64,000 bases of DNA from Candidatus Giovannonibacteria bacterium (GCA_016432405.1 CP066687.1:219040-283039); one strand, 5' to 3'; shown: positions 7,144 to 64,000, numbered from the stretch's first letter. Translations and numbers: made by a program. The notes: generated by a model from the letters alone, not told the origin.

Positions 7144-8967
7144 ATGTCTAATTTTTTTACCGAACATAAATTTATATTGATTTCCGCAGTCGGTTTGGCG
7201 CTTTTGGTGATATCGCCGGCCCTGCTTTTCCCGTTTATGGCCGGCGATGCGTATAAGGGCATAAATGTTGGTGAGTGGTCGGACGACTTCCATTATATCG
7301 CCAAAGGCAGAGAGATTCTGGAAGGCCATTCTTTGGGCAATATTGTTCTTAAAATCGGCAAAAACGATTCGTCCGACCCGCACCAGGTTTATATAGAATA
7401 TCTTCTTCTCGCGCCGGTTAGAATGCTGGGGCTTTCCCGCGCGGCGGCAGATTATATTGTTCCTATATACACTCTTTACGCTTTTTTGGGAGTTTTCCTT
7501 TTAATCCTCTCCATTTATTTTTTCATCCTGCGCCTCTCCGCGCATAAATTATTGTCCGCGGCGATAGCGCTATTTACAATAGGCGGCTACAGTTTGGTGA
7601 AGCTTTACCATGTGCCGATTACTGCAACCAATCCGGACCCCAACATATTCAGCCGGCCGATTATGCCCGTTTACGGGCTTCTGGCGCTTTTTATTTACAT
7701 CAATTTGCTTGCGAGAAGTTTAAAATCATCGGAGAAAAAACATATTCTTTGGTCCGGCATTGCCTTCGGAGCGCTGTTTTACGTTTACCCCTACACATGG
7801 ACTTTTGCCCTGGCGCTGACAGGGAGCTTGTTTCTGATTTATATTTTTTTGAGGGATTGGGAATCAGCGAAAAAAGTTTTTTGGGTTTTTACAATCGGGC
7901 TTGCCGTTGGCGCTTACACTCTTTTTAAAACGTTTTCATTTCAGTATTCGGAAATCGGCAAACAAATTTTATATTACGGGATTACTTTAAACCATAGTCC
8001 GGCGCCTTTCAGCAAGATTTTATTTTTGGCGTTAATTTTGGCAGTTATCTTTGCGTGCCGAAATAAATGGAGCAGGAACGCCCCCTTGCTTTTGTCTATT
8101 GTTCTCGCAAATTGGATAGCTTTGAACCAGCAGGTAATTACCGGGCGAGTCCCGCAAATAATGCACTATTTTTGGTATTTTACGATACCGACTTCTATCG
8201 TCGTTGGGGCTTACCTTGGATGGGCGCTTGTGTGGGGCTGGGAGCGCGGGAAATTAATATTGCAAAAATACGGAACCATTTTTTTGGCGGCGCTAATTAT
8301 CACCGCTTATTTTAATGCGGCTTCGCGGCAGTATCAGGTGACGCTGATTACGCGGGAGGCCAAAGAATACAGGCAGAACTACCGCCCTATTATTGACGCG
8401 TTGAAGTCGGATGCCGAACCGGGAGTTATCCTCGCGTCATCCCTGCCTTACGCAATGTTATTTCCGGTGTACACGCATCATGATTTATTTTGGGGGCATG
8501 CTACTGCTTTGGTTTACAATACGCCGATGGAAAGAATTAAAGATGCGCTGTACGTGTATATGTATTTGGATAAGAGCGCCAGAGACAATTTTTTGGGCCG
8601 GCTTCGCGATGTAGATGCCGGATACGGAGTTGGAGGCGAATGGGGAACCAGTTTTTACCCGCTTATTTATTTTTTTGTGGCCGGTTTTAATTCCGGTTTT
8701 GATTACGAGGAATATGGTTTTCGTTTGGCCAAGGGCGACCCGGCGACGGTTAAAAGCAGAGACGAAACGTCGGCCTTACTTTTCCGCGGATATCAAAAAG
8801 TAGCCAGTCCGGAAGGCATTGCAGGCATTCTGAAAAAAGGCGAGGTCAATTACGTCGTTTGGGATAAAAACAAAAATCCGGAGTGGAATTTGTCGCCCCT
8901 TTCCGGAAATTTAAGAGAGGTTGCCGCGTCTAACAATATTTATTTGTACAAATTTGGCGGTGACTGA
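7144..8967 (+). CDS. Large polytopic membrane protein, putative GT-C-type glycosyltransferase (paralogue 2, tandem to paralogue 1)
   Basis: Same architecture as paralogue 1. It shares several 55-80 nt stretches of nucleotide identity with it, for example 6479-6533 matches 8221-8275. Confidence 0.5.
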   Translation: MSNFFTEHKFILISAVGLALLVISPALLFPFMAGDAYKGINVGEWSDDFHYIAKGREILEGHSLGNIVLKIGKNDSSDPHQVYIEYLLLAPVRMLGLSRAAADYIVPIYTLYAFLGVFLLILSIYFFILRLSAHKLLSAAIALFTIGGYSLVKLYHVPITATNPDPNIFSRPIMPVYGLLALFIYINLLARSLKSSEKKHILWSGIAFGALFYVYPYTWTFALALTGSLFLIYIFLRDWESAKKVFWVFTIGLAVGAYTLFKTFSFQYSEIGKQILYYGITLNHSPAPFSKILFLALILAVIFACRNKWSRNAPLLLSIVLANWIALNQQVITGRVPQIMHYFWYFTIPTSIVVGAYLGWALVWGWERGKLILQKYGTIFLAALIITAYFNAASRQYQVTLITREAKEYRQNYRPIIDALKSDAEPGVILASSLPYAMLFPVYTHHDLFWGHATALVYNTPMERIKDALYVYMYLDKSARDNFLGRLRDVDAGYGVGGEWGTSFYPLIYFFVAGFNSGFDYEEYGFRLAKGDPATVKSRDETSALLFRGYQKVASPEGIAGILKKGEVNYVVWDKNKNPEWNLSPLSGNLREVAASNNIYLYKFGGD

Positions 8968-58667: not shown

Positions 58668-60016
58668 TTTTAGATGTCATTAAATCGCGGCGCACCCAGC
58701 GGCATTTTTCCGATAAGCCCGTGCCGGAGGAATATGTTGAAAAAATTCTTGAGGCGGCCAGCTGGGCGCCGAGCTCCTGCAATATGCAGCTTCTGGGGCT
58801 GATTCGCGTAACCGACCCGGCGCTCCGCCAAAAACTTGTTTATGAAGCGAAGTCCGCCGGCGAGGCCGCGAGAGCCCCGGTGCTTTTTGTGGCTACTTAC
58901 GATAAAAGATTCAGCCAGGAATACCATTCAAACATCCAATCCGGCGCGGCGGCGATTCAAAATATGGTCCTTACCGCGGAAAGTCTTGGTTTGGGAGCTT
59001 ATTGGGCGGCGAGCGTTGGGAAAGAAGAAATTGTGCGGAGCATTTTTAAAATACCTGAAAGGCGCGAGATTCTTGCTTTGGTTATGTTCGGCTGGCCGGA
59101 CAAAAAGCCGATTCCTCCGCGGCGAAGGCCGCCGGCGGAGTTTGTGCATAATAATTTCTACGACGGCAGCCGCGACCTGCCGCTTTCCGGGGACCCGGAC
59201 GACTGGCCAATTGAGCAGTTGAAAGCATTTCAGGAATTCAGGGTCTGGAGCGGCGCGAAATACCGCCCCTATCTTAGGGAGGAGTTCTCGGCGGTTCTTG
59301 ATTCAATCAAAGCGCACGCGCCCGCTGACGCGAAGGAATGGATTGATTTTTTGCCGTCAACCGGCGCGTATTTGGAGGGCTTGGTCAGGATTTTTCCGCG
59401 CGCGAGATTTAAAATTCTGGAGATTGCCGACCAACTGGCGCGTTTTTCAATAGAAAGAATCGGCGGCGCGGGCAAGCCGGAGAACCCTGTTGATTACGCC
59501 AATTACAATTTTGCGGGCGCGGAAAGCAGAGCCGACGCGGTTTCCTGCCTTTTTCGTTTGGAAGCGTATCCGACCGATTTGCATGAAAAAATACTGGAAG
59601 ATCTGTCGTCTTTGGTAAAGCCGGGCGGTATGCTGATTTTAGGCGTCTGCAACAAATTTTCTTATTTTTTGCCCCTGCACCGCCTCAAGGCGCGCCGCAA
59701 AAAAGAAATTCGTTTTCCGGTGATGACTCCGCAGATGGTGGCGCCATTCAAGCCGGTTGATCCGGACTGGACTTGTGGGATATTAAGGAGAGCTGGGTTC
59801 AGTTTGGAAGCGCGGGAATGTTTGTTTCTTTTTCCGACAATTGAAGAGCTGACTCCTTATTACAGCAAGTCCCCGCCATTGCCGTTTTCATTATTTGTCA
59901 AAGCCGCGAGGATGTTTTCTAAAATGATGCCGCGGCAGGTTTGGAGAAAATACGCGAAGATACAATTATTTTTTTTGAGGAAGGAGAACGATGGACGCCC
60001 CTCTGGGATTTCTTAA
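58664..60016 (+). CDS. Fusion of a nitroreductase-family flavoprotein domain and a methyltransferase-like domain
   Basis: N-terminus RRTQRHFSDKPVPEEYVEKILEAASWAPSSCNMQ is nitroreductase-like. C-terminus VKPGGMLILGV is MTase-like. 450 aa. Confidence 0.45.
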   Translation: MILDVIKSRRTQRHFSDKPVPEEYVEKILEAASWAPSSCNMQLLGLIRVTDPALRQKLVYEAKSAGEAARAPVLFVATYDKRFSQEYHSNIQSGAAAIQNMVLTAESLGLGAYWAASVGKEEIVRSIFKIPERREILALVMFGWPDKKPIPPRRRPPAEFVHNNFYDGSRDLPLSGDPDDWPIEQLKAFQEFRVWSGAKYRPYLREEFSAVLDSIKAHAPADAKEWIDFLPSTGAYLEGLVRIFPRARFKILEIADQLARFSIERIGGAGKPENPVDYANYNFAGAESRADAVSCLFRLEAYPTDLHEKILEDLSSLVKPGGMLILGVCNKFSYFLPLHRLKARRKKEIRFPVMTPQMVAPFKPVDPDWTCGILRRAGFSLEARECLFLFPTIEELTPYYSKSPPLPFSLFVKAARMFSKMMPRQVWRKYAKIQLFFLRKENDGRPSGIS

Positions 60017-61736
60017 AAAAGCGTCCGGCGCACTTTGGGGCGCCTCGGAGAGGAACGGAAATATTTTTTGCGCGAAACACGGAGTTGAACACACCGGAAA
60101 AATCGCTTACGCGGCGATATTGAATTTGGAGCTTTTTGACGCGACAGGCGAAGCGGAATATTTAAAGCGCGCGAGGATTTACGCGGAGTTCGTGTATTCT
60201 AAAATAAAACCCGAGCCCTCGGAAAAATATTGGATAGTCTGGCCCGGGAATTATTCAAGATATAATATGTCCAATTCAAGTTTGGACGCCGGGGCCGGGA
60301 TTGACGCGCTTTCATCTCTTCTGCTTCATCCAAAGAGCGGCCTTTCGGGTGAAACGATAGAAAAATATCGTGACGCCGTGCGGAAAGTCGCCTCCAGCTA
60401 TCTCACGGAAGCGGCTTCAGAAAAGCCGATTACCAACCAGAGATTATGGGCGGGGACGGGGCTCGCCGCCGCTTACGCTTTATTCCGCGAAGACAAGTGG
60501 AAAGACGCCGTTTTAAAAGGCATTGAGCGCGCTCTTCGGGAGCAGTGGGCGGACGGTTTTTTTTCTTACCATCCTTCTCCGGAGAAATCCGGCATGCCGG
60601 ACTCCGCGCGCGACCTCACTTCCTTTTACCATTCCCGGCACATCGGTTTTATATTGTATTCTCTGGCCCGGCTGGGGGTTGATTGGCGCGCGTACGAAGC
60701 AAATTTAAGCAAGGGGATTCGGGCGCTGGTCGCGCTAATCGGCAGAGACGGGCTAAAAAACGTCCGGGCCGAAGCCAAACGCTGGTATTGGCACTCCTTT
60801 TACGAGGTGGCGAGTTATTCTTTTGACCTCTACGCGCTTTTGGTATGGGGCGAACGCGCCGGAGACGAATTGGCAACAGAGTACGCGCGGCTTATGTGGG
60901 AGCGCTTGGAGAGCGAGCAGGCAAAAGACGGCTGGATTTTGGCTTCCAATGCGGGAGAAAATTTTCAATGTAAAATTTTCTGGACTTGCCAAACCGCCTG
61001 GCTTGCGCGCGTGCGGAATTTTGTTCCGCAAAAAACAAATATGCCGCAAGACGAATATACTTACTTCCCTGACGCCGACATTTTGCGCGTCGGGAAGCCG
61101 TCGTATCTTGTAACTCTGCGCGGAAAGACGTTTGCTCCAACAATGAGCTGGGGTTCCGGCTACGGCGGAGGCAATGCGCTTTATTTTGGTAATGCTTCCG
61201 AAGGATTTGCTAATAAATACCCGGCGCGCCATGGAGAGGTGGAGAGCGGCACGGGCTATGGCAGTTGGGTGGCTGCGCCGTCGTCTTTTTCGCTTCGCGC
61301 GCGCATTCAGCGCGCGTTAAAGCTTCTTAAAAACGAGCGGCACGAATTGAAAAGCCACATGTTTTATATGTTTGTTGAGCTCCGCGCCGGAAATATCCGG
61401 GCTTTTGGACACCTCTTCGCTGGACATTTTTTAAAACGCATCTTGTCCGCATTTTCGCCTTTGATTTCCACGGAGTGGAGCAGGGATGTTGCTGCCGACG
61501 TTTCTCCGCGCGCGGCATTTTATAAAGTGGCTCCGGCGGCGCGCGACGGAGAAGTGCGCGACGATTTTATTTTGGAAAGAAAATACATATTCGGGGAAAA
61601 TACGGTCTCCGTCCGCGACCAAGTGACCGTTAAACGGCCGCTTCGTTATCTTGCGCTGGTTGAGGGCGTGGGCGGAGAAACCCGCGTTTTTCATCCGAAG
61701 CAAAACGACACAATTGTCATAGAATATGAACTATGA
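59991..61736 (+). CDS. Hypothetical soluble protein, possibly an alpha/alpha-toroid polysaccharide lyase/epimerase-like fold
   Basis: 581 aa with no diagnostic motif; Trp/Tyr-rich repeats such as WYWHSFYEV. Confidence 0.25.
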   Translation: MDAPLGFLKKASGALWGASERNGNIFCAKHGVEHTGKIAYAAILNLELFDATGEAEYLKRARIYAEFVYSKIKPEPSEKYWIVWPGNYSRYNMSNSSLDAGAGIDALSSLLLHPKSGLSGETIEKYRDAVRKVASSYLTEAASEKPITNQRLWAGTGLAAAYALFREDKWKDAVLKGIERALREQWADGFFSYHPSPEKSGMPDSARDLTSFYHSRHIGFILYSLARLGVDWRAYEANLSKGIRALVALIGRDGLKNVRAEAKRWYWHSFYEVASYSFDLYALLVWGERAGDELATEYARLMWERLESEQAKDGWILASNAGENFQCKIFWTCQTAWLARVRNFVPQKTNMPQDEYTYFPDADILRVGKPSYLVTLRGKTFAPTMSWGSGYGGGNALYFGNASEGFANKYPARHGEVESGTGYGSWVAAPSSFSLRARIQRALKLLKNERHELKSHMFYMFVELRAGNIRAFGHLFAGHFLKRILSAFSPLISTEWSRDVAADVSPRAAFYKVAPAARDGEVRDDFILERKYIFGENTVSVRDQVTVKRPLRYLALVEGVGGETRVFHPKQNDTIVIEYEL

Positions 61737-61740
61737 CGCA

Positions 61741-61761
61741 CTTGGAAGTCCGGCTTCCAAG
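61741..61761. repeat. REP-like 21-bp perfect palindrome (8-bp stems, 5-nt loop), copy 1
   Basis: CTTGGAAG-TCCGG-CTTCCAAG; identical to the copy at 62422-62442; it sits exactly between two convergent stop codons. Confidence 0.7.
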
Positions 61762-61931
61762 TTAATCAAACAATAACGTTTCCAGCTCTTTGTAAAGCTG
61801 TTTACGCGCCAATATGTCTTTGAGCGATTCTTTTGCGAAAGTTTTATACTCCGCAATGTTTCTAAATTGATCTAGGATTATTTTTTTCTCACAAGTCCCT
61901 TTTTGTTTTTCTACATATTCTTCCCAACTCG

Positions 61932-61952
61932 ACTTGGAAGCTCGGCTTCCAA
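61932..61952. repeat. Intragenic REP-like palindrome, copy 2, in frame and encoding LGSRASK
   Basis: CTTGGAAG-CTCGG-CTTCCAAG inside the RAYT coding sequence. Confidence 0.6.
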
Positions 61953-62208
61953 GTCGGTGGATGCGGTCGTTTAAATTTACATAAGCGCTTATATGCAGAA
62001 GATACTCATTGGAGTCAATATGGCGAGATTTAAATTTACCTTGGAACAATACTCCACTGCGGTGATATTTATTATTAAAATAGTTTGTAAAACCAGTGCC
62101 GAGTCTTTGCATAAATTTTTCTACGCCCCTTTCTTCGGTTTGCTGAAGAATAAAATGATAGTGATTTGGATTAAGGCAGTAAGCTACGCAATTTACTAAT
62201 TTGCGTTG

Positions 62209-62229
62209 CTTGGAAGCCGAACTCCCAAG
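62209..62229. repeat. Intragenic REP-like palindrome, copy 3, one stem mismatch, in frame and encoding LGSSASK
   Basis: CTTGGAAG-CCGAA-CTCCCAAG inside the RAYT coding sequence. Confidence 0.5.
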
Positions 62230-62421
62230 TTGATTTTTTACGAAAGAATTCTCATAAATACTGCCTATTGGTTTTAACGTGTTAAATTCCTGCATGCTTT
62301 GCAGAAATCTCTCAAAATCGTATTTATCCAAAAAAATTTTTCGCTTATCGGTTCCGCGATTATAGATGTGATAAAATTCCCCAACGGAGAATACCTCTTT
62401 TCTCATATTGTTATATTAGCA

Positions 62422-62442
62422 CTTGGAAGTCCGGCTTCCAAG
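62422..62442. repeat. REP-like 21-bp perfect palindrome, copy 4, upstream of the RAYT start
   Basis: CTTGGAAG-TCCGG-CTTCCAAG; 16 nt upstream of the RAYT ATG on the minus strand. Confidence 0.7.
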
Positions 62443-62521
62443 TATTGCCGGATAGAGTTTTGCCATAATCACTTGACAAAAATCATTGAAAAAGCTAGGG
62501 TTACAGAAAGGAGGGGAAATT

Positions 62522-62698
62522 ATGCTTGGTCACATGGAAAAACCGGCAGAAGTTGCTAGGTCCGCGAAAGATGTAGTTTTGGAAGTATTGGATGAGTGGG
62601 ACAAAAAGATCAAGAAGATGGAAGAAGAAAACAATCTCCCCAACCCGACTACTTTGCTGGACTACGTCCGCAAAGACATCGAGAAAGCACTGGCTTAG
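62522..62698 (+). CDS. Small hypothetical protein (58 aa, charged/helical)
   Basis: AGGAGG 7 nt upstream of the ATG at 62522; followed by a terminator. Confidence 0.35.
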   Translation: MLGHMEKPAEVARSAKDVVLEVLDEWDKKIKKMEEENNLPNPTTLLDYVRKDIEKALA

Positions 62699-62707
62699 CC
62701 GCGCGAA

Positions 62708-62735
62708 TGGGCCCAATCTTGGGCCTTTTTCTTTT
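62708..62735 (+). terminator. Rho-independent terminator
   Basis: GGGCCC-AATCTT-GGGCC hairpin followed by TTTTTCTTTT. Confidence 0.55.
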
Positions 62736-62774
62736 GCCTTGCCGCAGGGTTTGGTTTTAGGTATCATTTAAACC

Positions 62775-64000
62775 ATGTCGCAAAAAACAATAGACATCAT
62801 TGTTAAAATAATCAAAGTCGGGCTTTGCGTTTTGCCGGCCGCCACGCTTATCGTGGGCGGAAATTTTTTCGCCAATATTTTTCTCCCCGGGGTGGGGGAT
62901 TTATTTTTTCCGTTCATTACCGGAAAAAACTTTTTCTTCAGGATAGTTGTTGAAATTTTGTTCGCCCTCTGGGCGCTGGCGGCGATTTTTGACAAGCGCT
63001 TCCGCCCGACATTGTCGCCCGTTTTTTGGGCGGTTTCGGCCACGCTCGTAATTCTGGTTTTATCCACTATTTTCGGGGAGAATCCTTACCGCAGTTTTTG
63101 GTCCAATTATGAACGAATGGAGGGGCTCGTGGGGCATCTTCATCTTTTTGCGTATTTCGTAATGCTCATCGGCGTTTTTAAATCGCAAACCGACTGGCGG
63201 AGATTTTTTTACTCAAGCATCGCAGTAAGTTTCATAATCACGACTTATTCGTATCTGCAGTTTATGGGGAGGTTGGAAATCCATCAGTCAAGCGATCGGC
63301 TTGACGCGACTTTAGGAAACGCGACGTATCTTGCGATTTACATTATTTTTCACCTCGCGCTTCTGGCTTATTATTTATTTCAACCTGCCCGCCAATTGGC
63401 AGGCGGGGAAAAACGAGTTTGGATAAAAGGTCTTTTTGCGGCGCTCATTGTTTTGGAGACCCCGATTGTGTTTCTTACCGCAACCAGAGGCGCGATTTTG
63501 GGGCTCATGGGGGGCGCGGTGCTTTTTGCTTTGCTTTTGGCGCTGTTGGATTGGGGTGCGAAGAGCAGGCTTTATAAACTTGTTGCCGCCGGGCTTGTTG
63601 CGGCTGTTTTTTTAATGGTCGGCGCGTTTTTTGCGTTAAAGAATACTAATTTTGTCCAAAAAAATTATGTGCTTAGCCGCTTTGCCCAGCTTTCGCCGCA
63701 GGAGCAGACAACCAAATCGCGCTTTACTATCTGGAGCATGGCGCTGGAGGGGTTTCAGGAACATCCTGTTTTGGGAGTAGGACTTGAAAATTTTAATCTT
63801 GTCTTCAATAAGCACTATAAAGCCATGTTGTGGCCGCAGGAGCCGTGGTTTGACAGGGCGCACAACGTATTTTTTGACTGGCTGGCGCAGGGCGGGGCGC
63901 TGGGGCTGATTGCTTACCTCGGAATCTTCATTGCGGCTATCTTCACGCTTTGGAAAAATCAATCGGATAAGTTCGCCACTGCCGCTTTCACGTCGCTTTT
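62775..64000 (+). CDS. O-antigen ligase / Wzy_C-domain polytopic membrane protein; the 3' end runs off the window
   Basis: At least 10 TM helices. LTATRGAILGL matches the Wzy_C motif xxRGAxLxL. The ORF track missed it because it has no stop within the window. Confidence 0.55.
   Translation, partial: MSQKTIDIIVKIIKVGLCVLPAATLIVGGNFFANIFLPGVGDLFFPFITGKNFFFRIVVEILFALWALAAIFDKRFRPTLSPVFWAVSATLVILVLSTIFGENPYRSFWSNYERMEGLVGHLHLFAYFVMLIGVFKSQTDWRRFFYSSIAVSFIITTYSYLQFMGRLEIHQSSDRLDATLGNATYLAIYIIFHLALLAYYLFQPARQLAGGEKRVWIKGLFAALIVLETPIVFLTATRGAILGLMGGAVLFALLLALLDWGAKSRLYKLVAAGLVAAVFLMVGAFFALKNTNFVQKNYVLSRFAQLSPQEQTTKSRFTIWSMALEGFQEHPVLGVGLENFNLVFNKHYKAMLWPQEPWFDRAHNVFFDWLAQGGALGLIAYLGIFIAAIFTLWKNQSDKFATAAFTSL

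Follow-up and report, generated by a model that had tools for sequence, protein, structure and literature searches.

Why would a transposase-like gene be bracketed by a short palindrome and also carry two copies of it, in frame, within its own coding sequence? The question was raised by a stretch of 64,000 nucleotides of Candidatus Giovannonibacteria DNA, here called the window, in which a first-pass annotation described a REPtron-like unit: a minus-strand, RAYT-type HUH transposase gene with an identical palindrome at either end and two more copies inside. For the internal copies it offered tolerated insertion, self-targeting or autoregulation, and decay of the gene.

The gene and its four palindromes

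The features of the locus, in gene order, are as follows.

62419-62443, unstranded: P0, the upstream palindrome copy (23-mer ACTTGGAAGTCCGGCTTCCAAGT at 62421-62443), its 25 nt identical to the downstream copy
61762-62406, minus strand: RAYT-like Y1 HUH gene, 214 aa (ORF, Pfam Y1_Tnp, structural match)
62209-62229, unstranded: P1, the first intragenic copy in gene order, encoding LGSSASK (aa 60 to 66)
62155-62163, minus strand: HUH motif H82-Y83-H84, with H82 and H84 invariant
61981-61983, minus strand: presumed catalytic Tyr142, invariant
61930-61956, unstranded: P2, the second intragenic copy, a perfect 12-bp stem (CGACTTGGAAGC-TCG-GCTTCCAAGTCG)
61738-61762, unstranded: P3, the downstream copy (23-mer at 61740-61762)

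The encoded protein contains both hallmarks named in the first-pass annotation, YHIYNRG and NHYHF, together with YLLHISAYVNLN. Its assignment to the RAYT-type HUH enzymes was borne out: Pfam Y1_Tnp (PF01797) matched at 28.8 bits, above the cut-off of 23, and the best Foldseek match of the AlphaFold model (pLDDT 79.7, pTM 0.79) was 4er8_A, the E. coli RAYT bound to its REP hairpin (E = 2e-5, TM[target] 0.60). The IS608, ISDra2, and IS200 transposases (TnpA) came next. Against the curated RAYT equivalog NCBIfam NF047646 (REP_Tyr_transpos) the protein scored 35.9 bits, under the cut-off of 80, and residues 65 to 156 alone were aligned. PDB sequence searches with the family profile gave no relevant match, so it is through the fold alone that the protein is linked to RAYT structures.

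More than 3,700 homologues of the 214-aa protein were found, and all of those that are named come from lineages of the Candidate Phyla Radiation (CPR), whose members are ultra-small, genome-reduced bacteria. The identical protein is annotated in a Candidatus Giovannonibacteria metagenome-assembled genome and was found (as P0001) on nine contigs from several sequencing runs. With an intact ORF, this recurrence of the identical protein, and H82, H84, and Y142 invariant in an alignment of 30 homologues, the suggestion of gene decay does not hold.

A search of the whole 64-kb window for CTTGGAAG-N5-CTTCCAAG, allowing up to 3 mismatches, returned four matches, at 61741-61761, 61933-61953, 62209-62229 (1 mismatch), and 62422-62442. 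The mean in shuffled sequence was 0.24, and none of 100 shuffles reached four. The described arrangement, a gene flanked by its own palindrome with two in-frame copies inside, stands. A relaxed outer-stem pattern run over the 64 kb found no credible palindrome copy beyond the four at the locus. Their architecture is ACTTGG-N4-N3-N4'-CCAAGT, a 23-bp, untagged, REP-like palindrome. The flanking copies share all 25 nt of GCACTTGGAAGTCCGGCTTCCAAGT (61738-61762 and 62419-62443). As had been noted, the palindrome directly follows the stop codon, and the P3 23-mer in fact shares 1 nt with the TAA; it also sits 3 nt past the stop of a convergent 581-aa gene (59991-61736). The distance to the start codon needs a small correction from 16 nt, since the upstream 21-mer ends 15 nt ahead of the ATG and the 23-mer 14 nt.

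P1 and P2 are read in one phase, CTT GGN ... NCC AAG, confirming the reported shared frame and the peptide LGS(R/S)ASK: P1 encodes LGSSASK and P2 encodes R-LGSRASK-S (aa 150 to 158, with LGSRASK at aa 151 to 157). In the AlphaFold model, P1 falls in a loop with a pLDDT of <50 ahead of the HUH strand and P2 in the loop following the catalytic-tyrosine helix. Folded as single-stranded DNA, three of the four hairpins reached -8.3 to -13.6 kcal/mol (z = -4.6 to -8.2 against shuffled controls), P2 being the strongest (-13.6 kcal/mol, z = -8.2). P1, whose 8-bp stem has one mismatch (G.T on the sense strand), folded weakly (-4.9 kcal/mol, z = -1.8).

Hairpin layout and concerted evolution in CPR relatives

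We compared 99 loci, comprising 80 homologous loci from metagenomes, 18 from a palindrome scan, and the window itself. Loci L001 to L120 were picked by an AAG-type stem, and half of the loci came through one stem type; genes at the related loci were inferred from ORFs, not from a gene caller. Hairpins occurred at these positions:

P0, about -40 relative to the ATG: hairpin in 87 of 95 loci
P1, about +175 relative to the ATG: hairpin in 66 of 99 loci
P2, about +445 relative to the ATG: hairpin in 59 of 99 loci
P3, just past the stop codon: hairpin in 79 of 95 loci

The four copies occupy the predicted promoter, two dispensable protein loops, and the edge of the stop codon, and these positions are conserved across the family. 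Of 125 scored intragenic hairpins in the 99 loci, 102 are in the CTT GGN phase, all with 3-nt loops, while hairpins scored with longer loops use other registers. The outer stem ACTTGG/CCAAGT is widely conserved, and the inner 4 bp occur in 61 forms with compensatory changes. At position 2 the protein has the same length with or without the hairpin, and stems there often extend to 13 to 18 bp by drawing in adjacent codons (HQLG..SKLV). An interior copy of the gene's own flank hairpin is missing in 25 of 96 loci, so interior copies are not required; the P1 and P2 slots are dispensable surface loops of the protein. The notion of tolerated insertions was only half right: the copies lie at two fixed positions, mostly in one phase, match the flanks, and at position 2 bring no change of length.

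Within a locus the copies resemble each other far more than they resemble those of other loci. Two copies from one locus have the same inner 4-bp stem in 69% of pairs, versus 4.4% for copies from different loci. The gene's own flank hairpin recurs inside it (≤3 mismatches in 23 nt) in 71 of 96 genes, versus 3.4% for non-cognate motifs, and such interior copies are confined to nucleotides 150 to 230 and 400 to 520. At the protein level, LGxxxSK segments differ between proteins and agree within one: LGHRVSK, LGGSASK, and LGGQASK each occur twice in their protein. Even in loci with wholly different palindromes (GTGGAC.., AGGGAC.., TTTGGG..), the interior copies still match the flanks, and the peptides are unrelated. 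Three loci that are 94% identical, L177, L183, and L184, have P0/P2 loops of GCC/GCC, GGC/GGC, and GGA/TCC, respectively; here a non-coding copy and a coding copy have changed together recently. A copy sequence shared within each locus and differing between loci is concerted evolution. Loops are equally frequent in both orientations and, between copies of one locus, are flipped about half the time. Pair counts over 124 hairpins are partly circular because the sequences had been selected as hairpins, and are informative only as to how varied the pair types are at stem positions 7 to 10.

These comparisons bear on another reading of the internal copies, in which the protein has a conserved LGSxASK motif and the palindromes are merely the DNA that encodes it. 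Both segments do align in the same columns of close homologues, at position 2 without a change in length. The non-coding flanks, however, have the same sequence, and the peptides follow the flanks (for example, LGHRVSK, LGGETPK, RGHRVST, and KKGLSPSERDLVPL); the match of genes to their own flanks and the joint loop changes in L177, L183, and L184 contradict that reading as well. Because the peptides vary with the non-coding flanks, LGSxASK is not a conserved protein motif; the refuting test named in the first-pass annotation fails, and we give that explanation practically no credence. For the intragenic copies, the family-wide results rule out chance, decay of the gene, and a conserved protein motif alike. 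Layout and joint change of the copies together point to an enzyme and a DNA target that co-evolve as one unit.

Predicted promoter, candidate hairpin-reading residues, and genomic distribution

Several results, among them the equal use of both loop orientations, point to DNA and not RNA as the level at which the hairpins act. On the sense strand, stem mismatches were G.T in 21 cases and A.C in 24; we rejected an RNA-structure reading, as G.U is not in excess over A.C and transcription is predicted to start downstream of P0. An Rfam scan of 61000-63200 (E ≤ 1) gave two sub-threshold chance matches and no family. A generic terminator scan found none at the hairpins, which have no T-tract, so an intrinsic-terminator reading was also rejected.

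The upstream hairpin overlaps a conserved promoter-like motif, the family consensus being ACTTGGa.gc...gc.tCCAAGTg.ta.aat......At. In the window this corresponds to one further feature.

62413-62441, minus strand: predicted promoter on P0, from the family consensus

The predicted -35 element, TTGGAA (62441 to 62436), lies in an arm of the P0 hairpin and is followed by a 17-nt spacer and a predicted extended -10 element, TGcTAATAT (TG at 62421 to 62420, hexamer at 62418 to 62413), the TG taking the last T of the hairpin. Six nucleotides (AACAAT) then precede the ATG at 62406. Upstream hairpins with a 3-nt loop number 71, and in 44 of them a TANNNT starts within a few nucleotides of the hairpin end; in 42 of these 44 the spacing from a left-arm TTGGAA or TTGGAC to the TAnAAT hexamer is 17 nt, and in 22 there are 6 nt between hexamer and start codon. 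A generic sigma-70 scan of the window did not call the P0 promoter, because the window copy matches 8 of 12 positions. From its position in the consensus, P0 seems to provide both the -35 element and the spacer of a promoter, and the 6-nt gap to the ATG predicts a leaderless mRNA.

Residues that might read the variable inner stem were sought by co-variation across 77 loci. The features concerned are the following.

62077-62127, minus strand: helix aa 94 to 110, between the HUH strand and the next strand (secondary structure predicted from the AlphaFold model)
62095-62097, minus strand: T104, candidate inner-stem reader
62083-62085, minus strand: N108, candidate inner-stem reader

Residues 108 and 104, one helical turn apart on this helix, had the highest mutual information with the inner-stem bases (1.06 and 0.89 bits; the 95th percentile of the background was 0.39 bits), in a ranking that leaves out hairpin-encoded residues and with a statistic that ignores phylogeny. 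Tryptophan at 108 pairs with CG.. stems (11 of 11), glutamine with CAA. stems (5 of 5), and methionine or arginine with AGG. stems (7 of 9). W108 proteins are spread over eight sequence clusters, and when the comparison is limited to pairs of proteins with ≥68% identity at their other positions, no column is linked more closely to a difference in stem than residue 108. Judged by this co-variation of residues 104 and 108 with the inner stem, the enzyme and its cognate repeat co-evolve. Diverged paralogues have their own, different flanking palindromes, and several such paralogue/repeat pairs can share one genome. By the order of secondary-structure elements, helix 94 to 110 would occupy the position of helix alpha-3 in TnpA-REP. 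A DNA-binding role has been described for that helix (PMC8266576). We also considered whether specificity might come from the hairpin-derived peptides themselves; this idea is weakened because many loci without P1 and/or P2 keep their flank hairpins.

The palindrome family is scattered through CPR genomes. Reference genomes contain the pattern ACTTGGAAG-N5-CTTCCAAGT in at least 120 stretches, where about 9 would be expected; among the matches listed, 64 of 80 record titles name a CPR lineage, and 98 of 120 stretches are without a RAYT-like gene in their vicinity. In 745 kb of DNA flanking RAYT genes, REP-like palindromes occur once per ~22 kb, and about 11 of 34 of these dispersed copies have the inner stem of the local RAYT (4.4% expected). 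About half of the dispersed copies (67 of 142) are found deep within long ORFs (≥150 codons), in frame in housekeeping genes. Their phases are not random: 31 read.LE..LPS, 33 read LG...SK, and 3 read TWK..FQV (chi-square P = 3e-6). Hosts in related genomes include DnaE, GyrA, UvrB, RecG, FtsK, ArgRS, and GlmS, in which the hairpin peptides are insertions of 8 to 15 aa relative to orthologues; in the window, only the RAYT gene has in-frame copies. That such copies are unusual, as the first-pass annotation held, is accordingly true of published RAYTs and not of the CPR family, where the layout is the rule and the same palindromes stand in frame in many housekeeping genes. In one locus, L069, a RAYT remnant starts exactly at the P2 hairpin.

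The RAYT-like gene is a single-copy, resident (domesticated) gene and not a multicopy insertion sequence, judged on the contigs carrying two exact proteins: each has one genomic context (P0001, 9 contigs; P0095, 24 contigs read of 106 index blocks). This bears on whether the locus could be an autonomous IS200/IS605-type element whose flanking hairpins are its left and right ends. Such an element would fit a roughly 700-bp (704-bp) unit with one Y1 gene between two hairpins, as well as a gene GC content of about 36% in flanks of about 50%. The single context per protein argues against it, and the GC offset is a general property: in all of the 71 loci compared the gene lies 9 points under its flanks, and its GC follows that of the host (r = 0.79). 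That universality also led us to reject recent horizontal transfer as the source of the low GC. Moreover, the ends are identical perfect palindromes, not distinct, imperfect left and right hairpins with guide tetranucleotides, and there is no second copy within the 64-kb window. We regard an autonomous element as very improbable.

Explanations for the locus and comparison with known systems

The explanation that we favor, and consider fairly probable, is a resident, single-copy RAYT-type Y1 HUH gene with four cognate 23-bp palindromes, for which we infer hairpin copying driven by the enzyme and autoregulation at the promoter. By analogy with E. coli TnpA-REP and IS608 TnpA, the enzyme would bind the folded, single-stranded hairpin (candidate substrate ACTTGGAAGCCGGACTTCCAAGT) through helix 94 to 110 and then nick and rejoin at the hairpin foot. 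Hairpins could in this way be copied or replaced at existing hairpin sites in either orientation, which would keep local copies identical and flip their loops at random. Occupancy of P0 may exert negative autoregulation. The intragenic copies would be long-standing, in-frame residents, kept palindromic by the enzyme's copying. Several points count against this explanation: the protein falls short of the NCBIfam RAYT cut-off, the hairpins have neither a tag nor a conserved flank by which strands might be told apart, the 63 kb of the window beyond the locus contain no fifth copy, 25 of 96 loci do without interior copies, the window's own promoter copy fits the pattern at only 8 of 12 positions, the choice of loci was biased toward one stem type, only about a third of the dispersed copies near RAYT genes share the inner stem, and concerted evolution could stem from ordinary short-tract gene conversion.

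The latter point can be put as an explanation of its own, in which the copies are kept alike by ordinary recombination in the host, be it short-tract gene conversion or template switching from one 23- to 39-bp repeat to another close by, and the enzyme merely uses, or is regulated by, the hairpins. The copies do lie within 700 bp of each other, often with 25 to 39 bp of identity; loop flips are a product expected of template switching within a palindrome, and a deletion between repeats could equally account for the L069 remnant. RecA-dependent exchange has a minimum length of identity, however, and the tracts here are at or below the usual value. The local stem type is also enriched in copies kilobases away, and the co-variation of residues 104 and 108 with the stem ties the enzyme to the sequence. 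Host gene conversion is a live alternative for the homogenization step, but as an account of the locus we find it rather unlikely. A different proposal concerns what the intragenic hairpins do: they might be selected cis-regulatory elements, acting as protein-bound roadblocks or attenuators, or limiting expression as sites of self-cleavage. The proposal can stand alongside enzyme-driven copying but gives the hairpins a function, and it draws on the two fixed positions and one phase kept over roughly 100 loci, on the frequent lengthening of position 2 to 13- to 18-bp stems through neighboring codons, and on the overlap of P0 with a promoter motif. Yet 33 to 40% of loci have no hairpin at one position and 25 of 96 have neither, there is no G.U bias of the kind expected for mRNA structure, and the peptides, even the whole hairpin sequence, are unconstrained. 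We consider a selected regulatory role unlikely.

Returning to copying by the enzyme, we can extend it one tentative step. The in-frame hairpins may be working parts, with the enzyme overwriting two of its own codon blocks and its promoter with whichever hairpin variant is currently mobilized; we think this possible but doubtful. If it were true, gene, promoter, and substrate population would evolve as one; it would be the first conservative hairpin-for-hairpin replacement by a Y1 HUH enzyme; and residues 104 and 108 would form a natural two-residue code for reprogramming the recognition of single-stranded hairpins. The repeat/enzyme pair occurs in many CPR lineages, where dozens of stem variants found in nature each have their matching protein variant. 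This set is ready data on the reading of a DNA hairpin by a Y1 HUH enzyme, 104 and 108 being the first candidate residues. Concerted evolution of a 23-bp element across coding and non-coding sites opens the mechanism by which REPs turn over to direct testing. There is also evidence that, in bacteria with reduced genomes, essential proteins routinely have repeat-encoded loops, and for annotation, LGxxxSK and LExxLPS peptides in CPR proteins are to be read as repeat derived.

Among known systems, the IS200/IS605 elements (IS608, ISDra2) have in common with the CPR locus a Y1 HUH enzyme and hairpins on both sides of the gene; recognition of single-stranded DNA hairpins is a likeness by analogy only, as is the control of expression by terminal hairpins in IS200. 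Unlike these elements, the CPR unit is not multicopy, its ends are identical perfect palindromes, and no guide or cleavage tetranucleotide is evident.

Rickettsia palindromic elements (RPEs) are longer than 23 to 24 bp. To our knowledge, occupancy of the transposase gene itself by repeats has not been reported for RPEs or intragenic REPs. REPs lying within genes for replication and repair have been described, as have REPs that overlap RAYT gene ends (Di Nocera 2013, PMC3733652). Both intragenic REPs and RPEs resemble the CPR palindromes in standing in frame within functional genes, notably those for DNA replication/repair and for tRNA synthetases (PMC3733652). The CPR elements differ from RPEs in being single hairpins of 23 to 24 bp, linked to a cognate Y1 gene and spread over a whole phylum-level radiation.

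REP/RAYT systems have been described mainly in Proteobacteria, and full-text literature searches found no paper linking them to the CPR. In REPtrons, RAYT (TnpA-REP) genes are flanked by REPs; the E. coli gene belongs to group 2 and those of Stenotrophomonas maltophilia and Marinomonas, with perfect palindromes, to group 3 (PMC3333891, PMC3479197, PMC8266576, PMC5581495). The CPR locus shares with them the Y1 HUH fold, a single-copy resident gene, and a short flanking palindrome, whose dispersal here was seen in related CPR genomes, as well as enzyme-repeat co-evolution and coexisting paralogue/repeat pairs (PMC3333891, PMC5581495, PMC8266576). It is a REP/RAYT-type system, in a variant form that we did not find in the REP/RAYT literature; in particular, that literature yielded no description of in-frame, gene-internal copies that track the flanks. 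Canonical TnpA-REP needs tag or flank features for strand discrimination (PMC8266576). The CPR family, in contrast, has no GTAG or GTGG guide tetranucleotide: beside 409 unique hairpins we found no GTAG-, GTGG-, or CGTC-like tag or target site, no flanking position exceeding 0.31 bits. The CPR protein also falls under the NCBIfam RAYT cut-off and, at 214 aa, is longer, with an insert ahead of the HUH strand and a long C-terminal helix. Unlike in REPtrons, finally, the CPR repeats are as often intragenic as extragenic, the upstream repeat appears from the family consensus to supply the promoter's -35 element and spacer, and two in-frame copies at fixed positions within the gene follow those at its flanks.

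Palindromes within housekeeping genes

In other CPR genomes, the 23-bp palindrome is found in-frame within housekeeping genes, as follows.

L068:7482, DnaE
L081:3992-4039, GyrA (tandem pair)
L098:2238, UvrB
L066:6944, RecG
L031:3419, FtsK
L105:3517, GlmS

The palindromes in these six genes encode LGSxxSK or xLExxLPS loops, which are insertions of 8 to 15 amino acids that are absent from orthologues at other loci. In another Giovannonibacteria genome, a palindrome whose stem is exactly that of the window and whose loop is reverse-complemented lies in-frame (L063:6826) in a 571-aa ORF, where the peptide reads ..RRIPPPRNLEAGLPSGSPASF..; by eye, it resembles LepA/EF4.

In two different genomes, the palindrome occupies one shared loop within the N-terminal domain of arginyl-tRNA synthetase, directly ahead of the VE(I/V)AGPGF motif.

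L009:3404, palindrome in loop
L048:6097, palindrome in loop (second palindrome in this gene at 7240)

The reading phases of the two loop copies differ (QLGSSASK and HLEAQLPS). Occupation of one loop in different phases in two genomes points to either a hot spot for insertion or repeated colonization.

Remnant, mixed, and paralogous loci

At L069:4656-4887, only amino acids 152 to 209 of a RAYT are left. The N-terminal 150 codons of this remnant are missing, the breakpoint falls exactly at a hairpin, and hairpins of the P2 type (intragenic) and P3 type (just after the stop codon) lie at its boundaries. Two hairpin types, named for their inner stems, share one RAYT locus in L001 (region 278-1012): GGTG hairpins occupy P0 (before the gene) and P2, and AAGC hairpins occupy P1 (intragenic) and P3. 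The pattern looks like competition between two populations of repeats for the hairpin positions.

Diverged Y1 paralogues (30 to 38% identity), often <10 kb from the main gene, were found at five loci.

L152:4010-4621
L169, 18598-18059, reverse strand
L198, 10189-9629
L120:1820-2251
L057

Each is flanked by its own unrelated palindromes, several of which contain a perfect TTGACA; in L169, the paralogue's palindrome is also interior, at +274.

Neighbors and base composition of the RAYT-like gene

The RAYT-like gene of the window has the following neighbors.

62523-62698, small ORF of 58 aa, divergent (region 62474-62698)
59991-61736, convergent gene of 581 aa
58664-60016, double-nitroreductase-domain gene

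The 58-aa ORF, present with the RAYT-like gene on all the longer contigs encoding the identical protein, has a textbook promoter-like site (TTGACA, 17 nt, TAGGGT) and an AGGAGG ribosome-binding site; unlike this ORF, the RAYT-like gene is predicted to be leaderless. The start of the 581-aa gene, for which no Pfam match is on record, overlaps the 3′ end of the double-nitroreductase-domain gene by 26 nt, and the neighbor on the opposite side of the RAYT-like locus encodes a Wzy_C plus TPR protein.

Among the RAYT-like loci (L001 to L200), GC content of the RAYT-like gene was 9 points below that of the DNA around it in 71 of 71 loci, with a slope of 0.64 against host GC. The deficit, which could be misread as recent transfer, is a constant compositional offset of RAYT-like genes.
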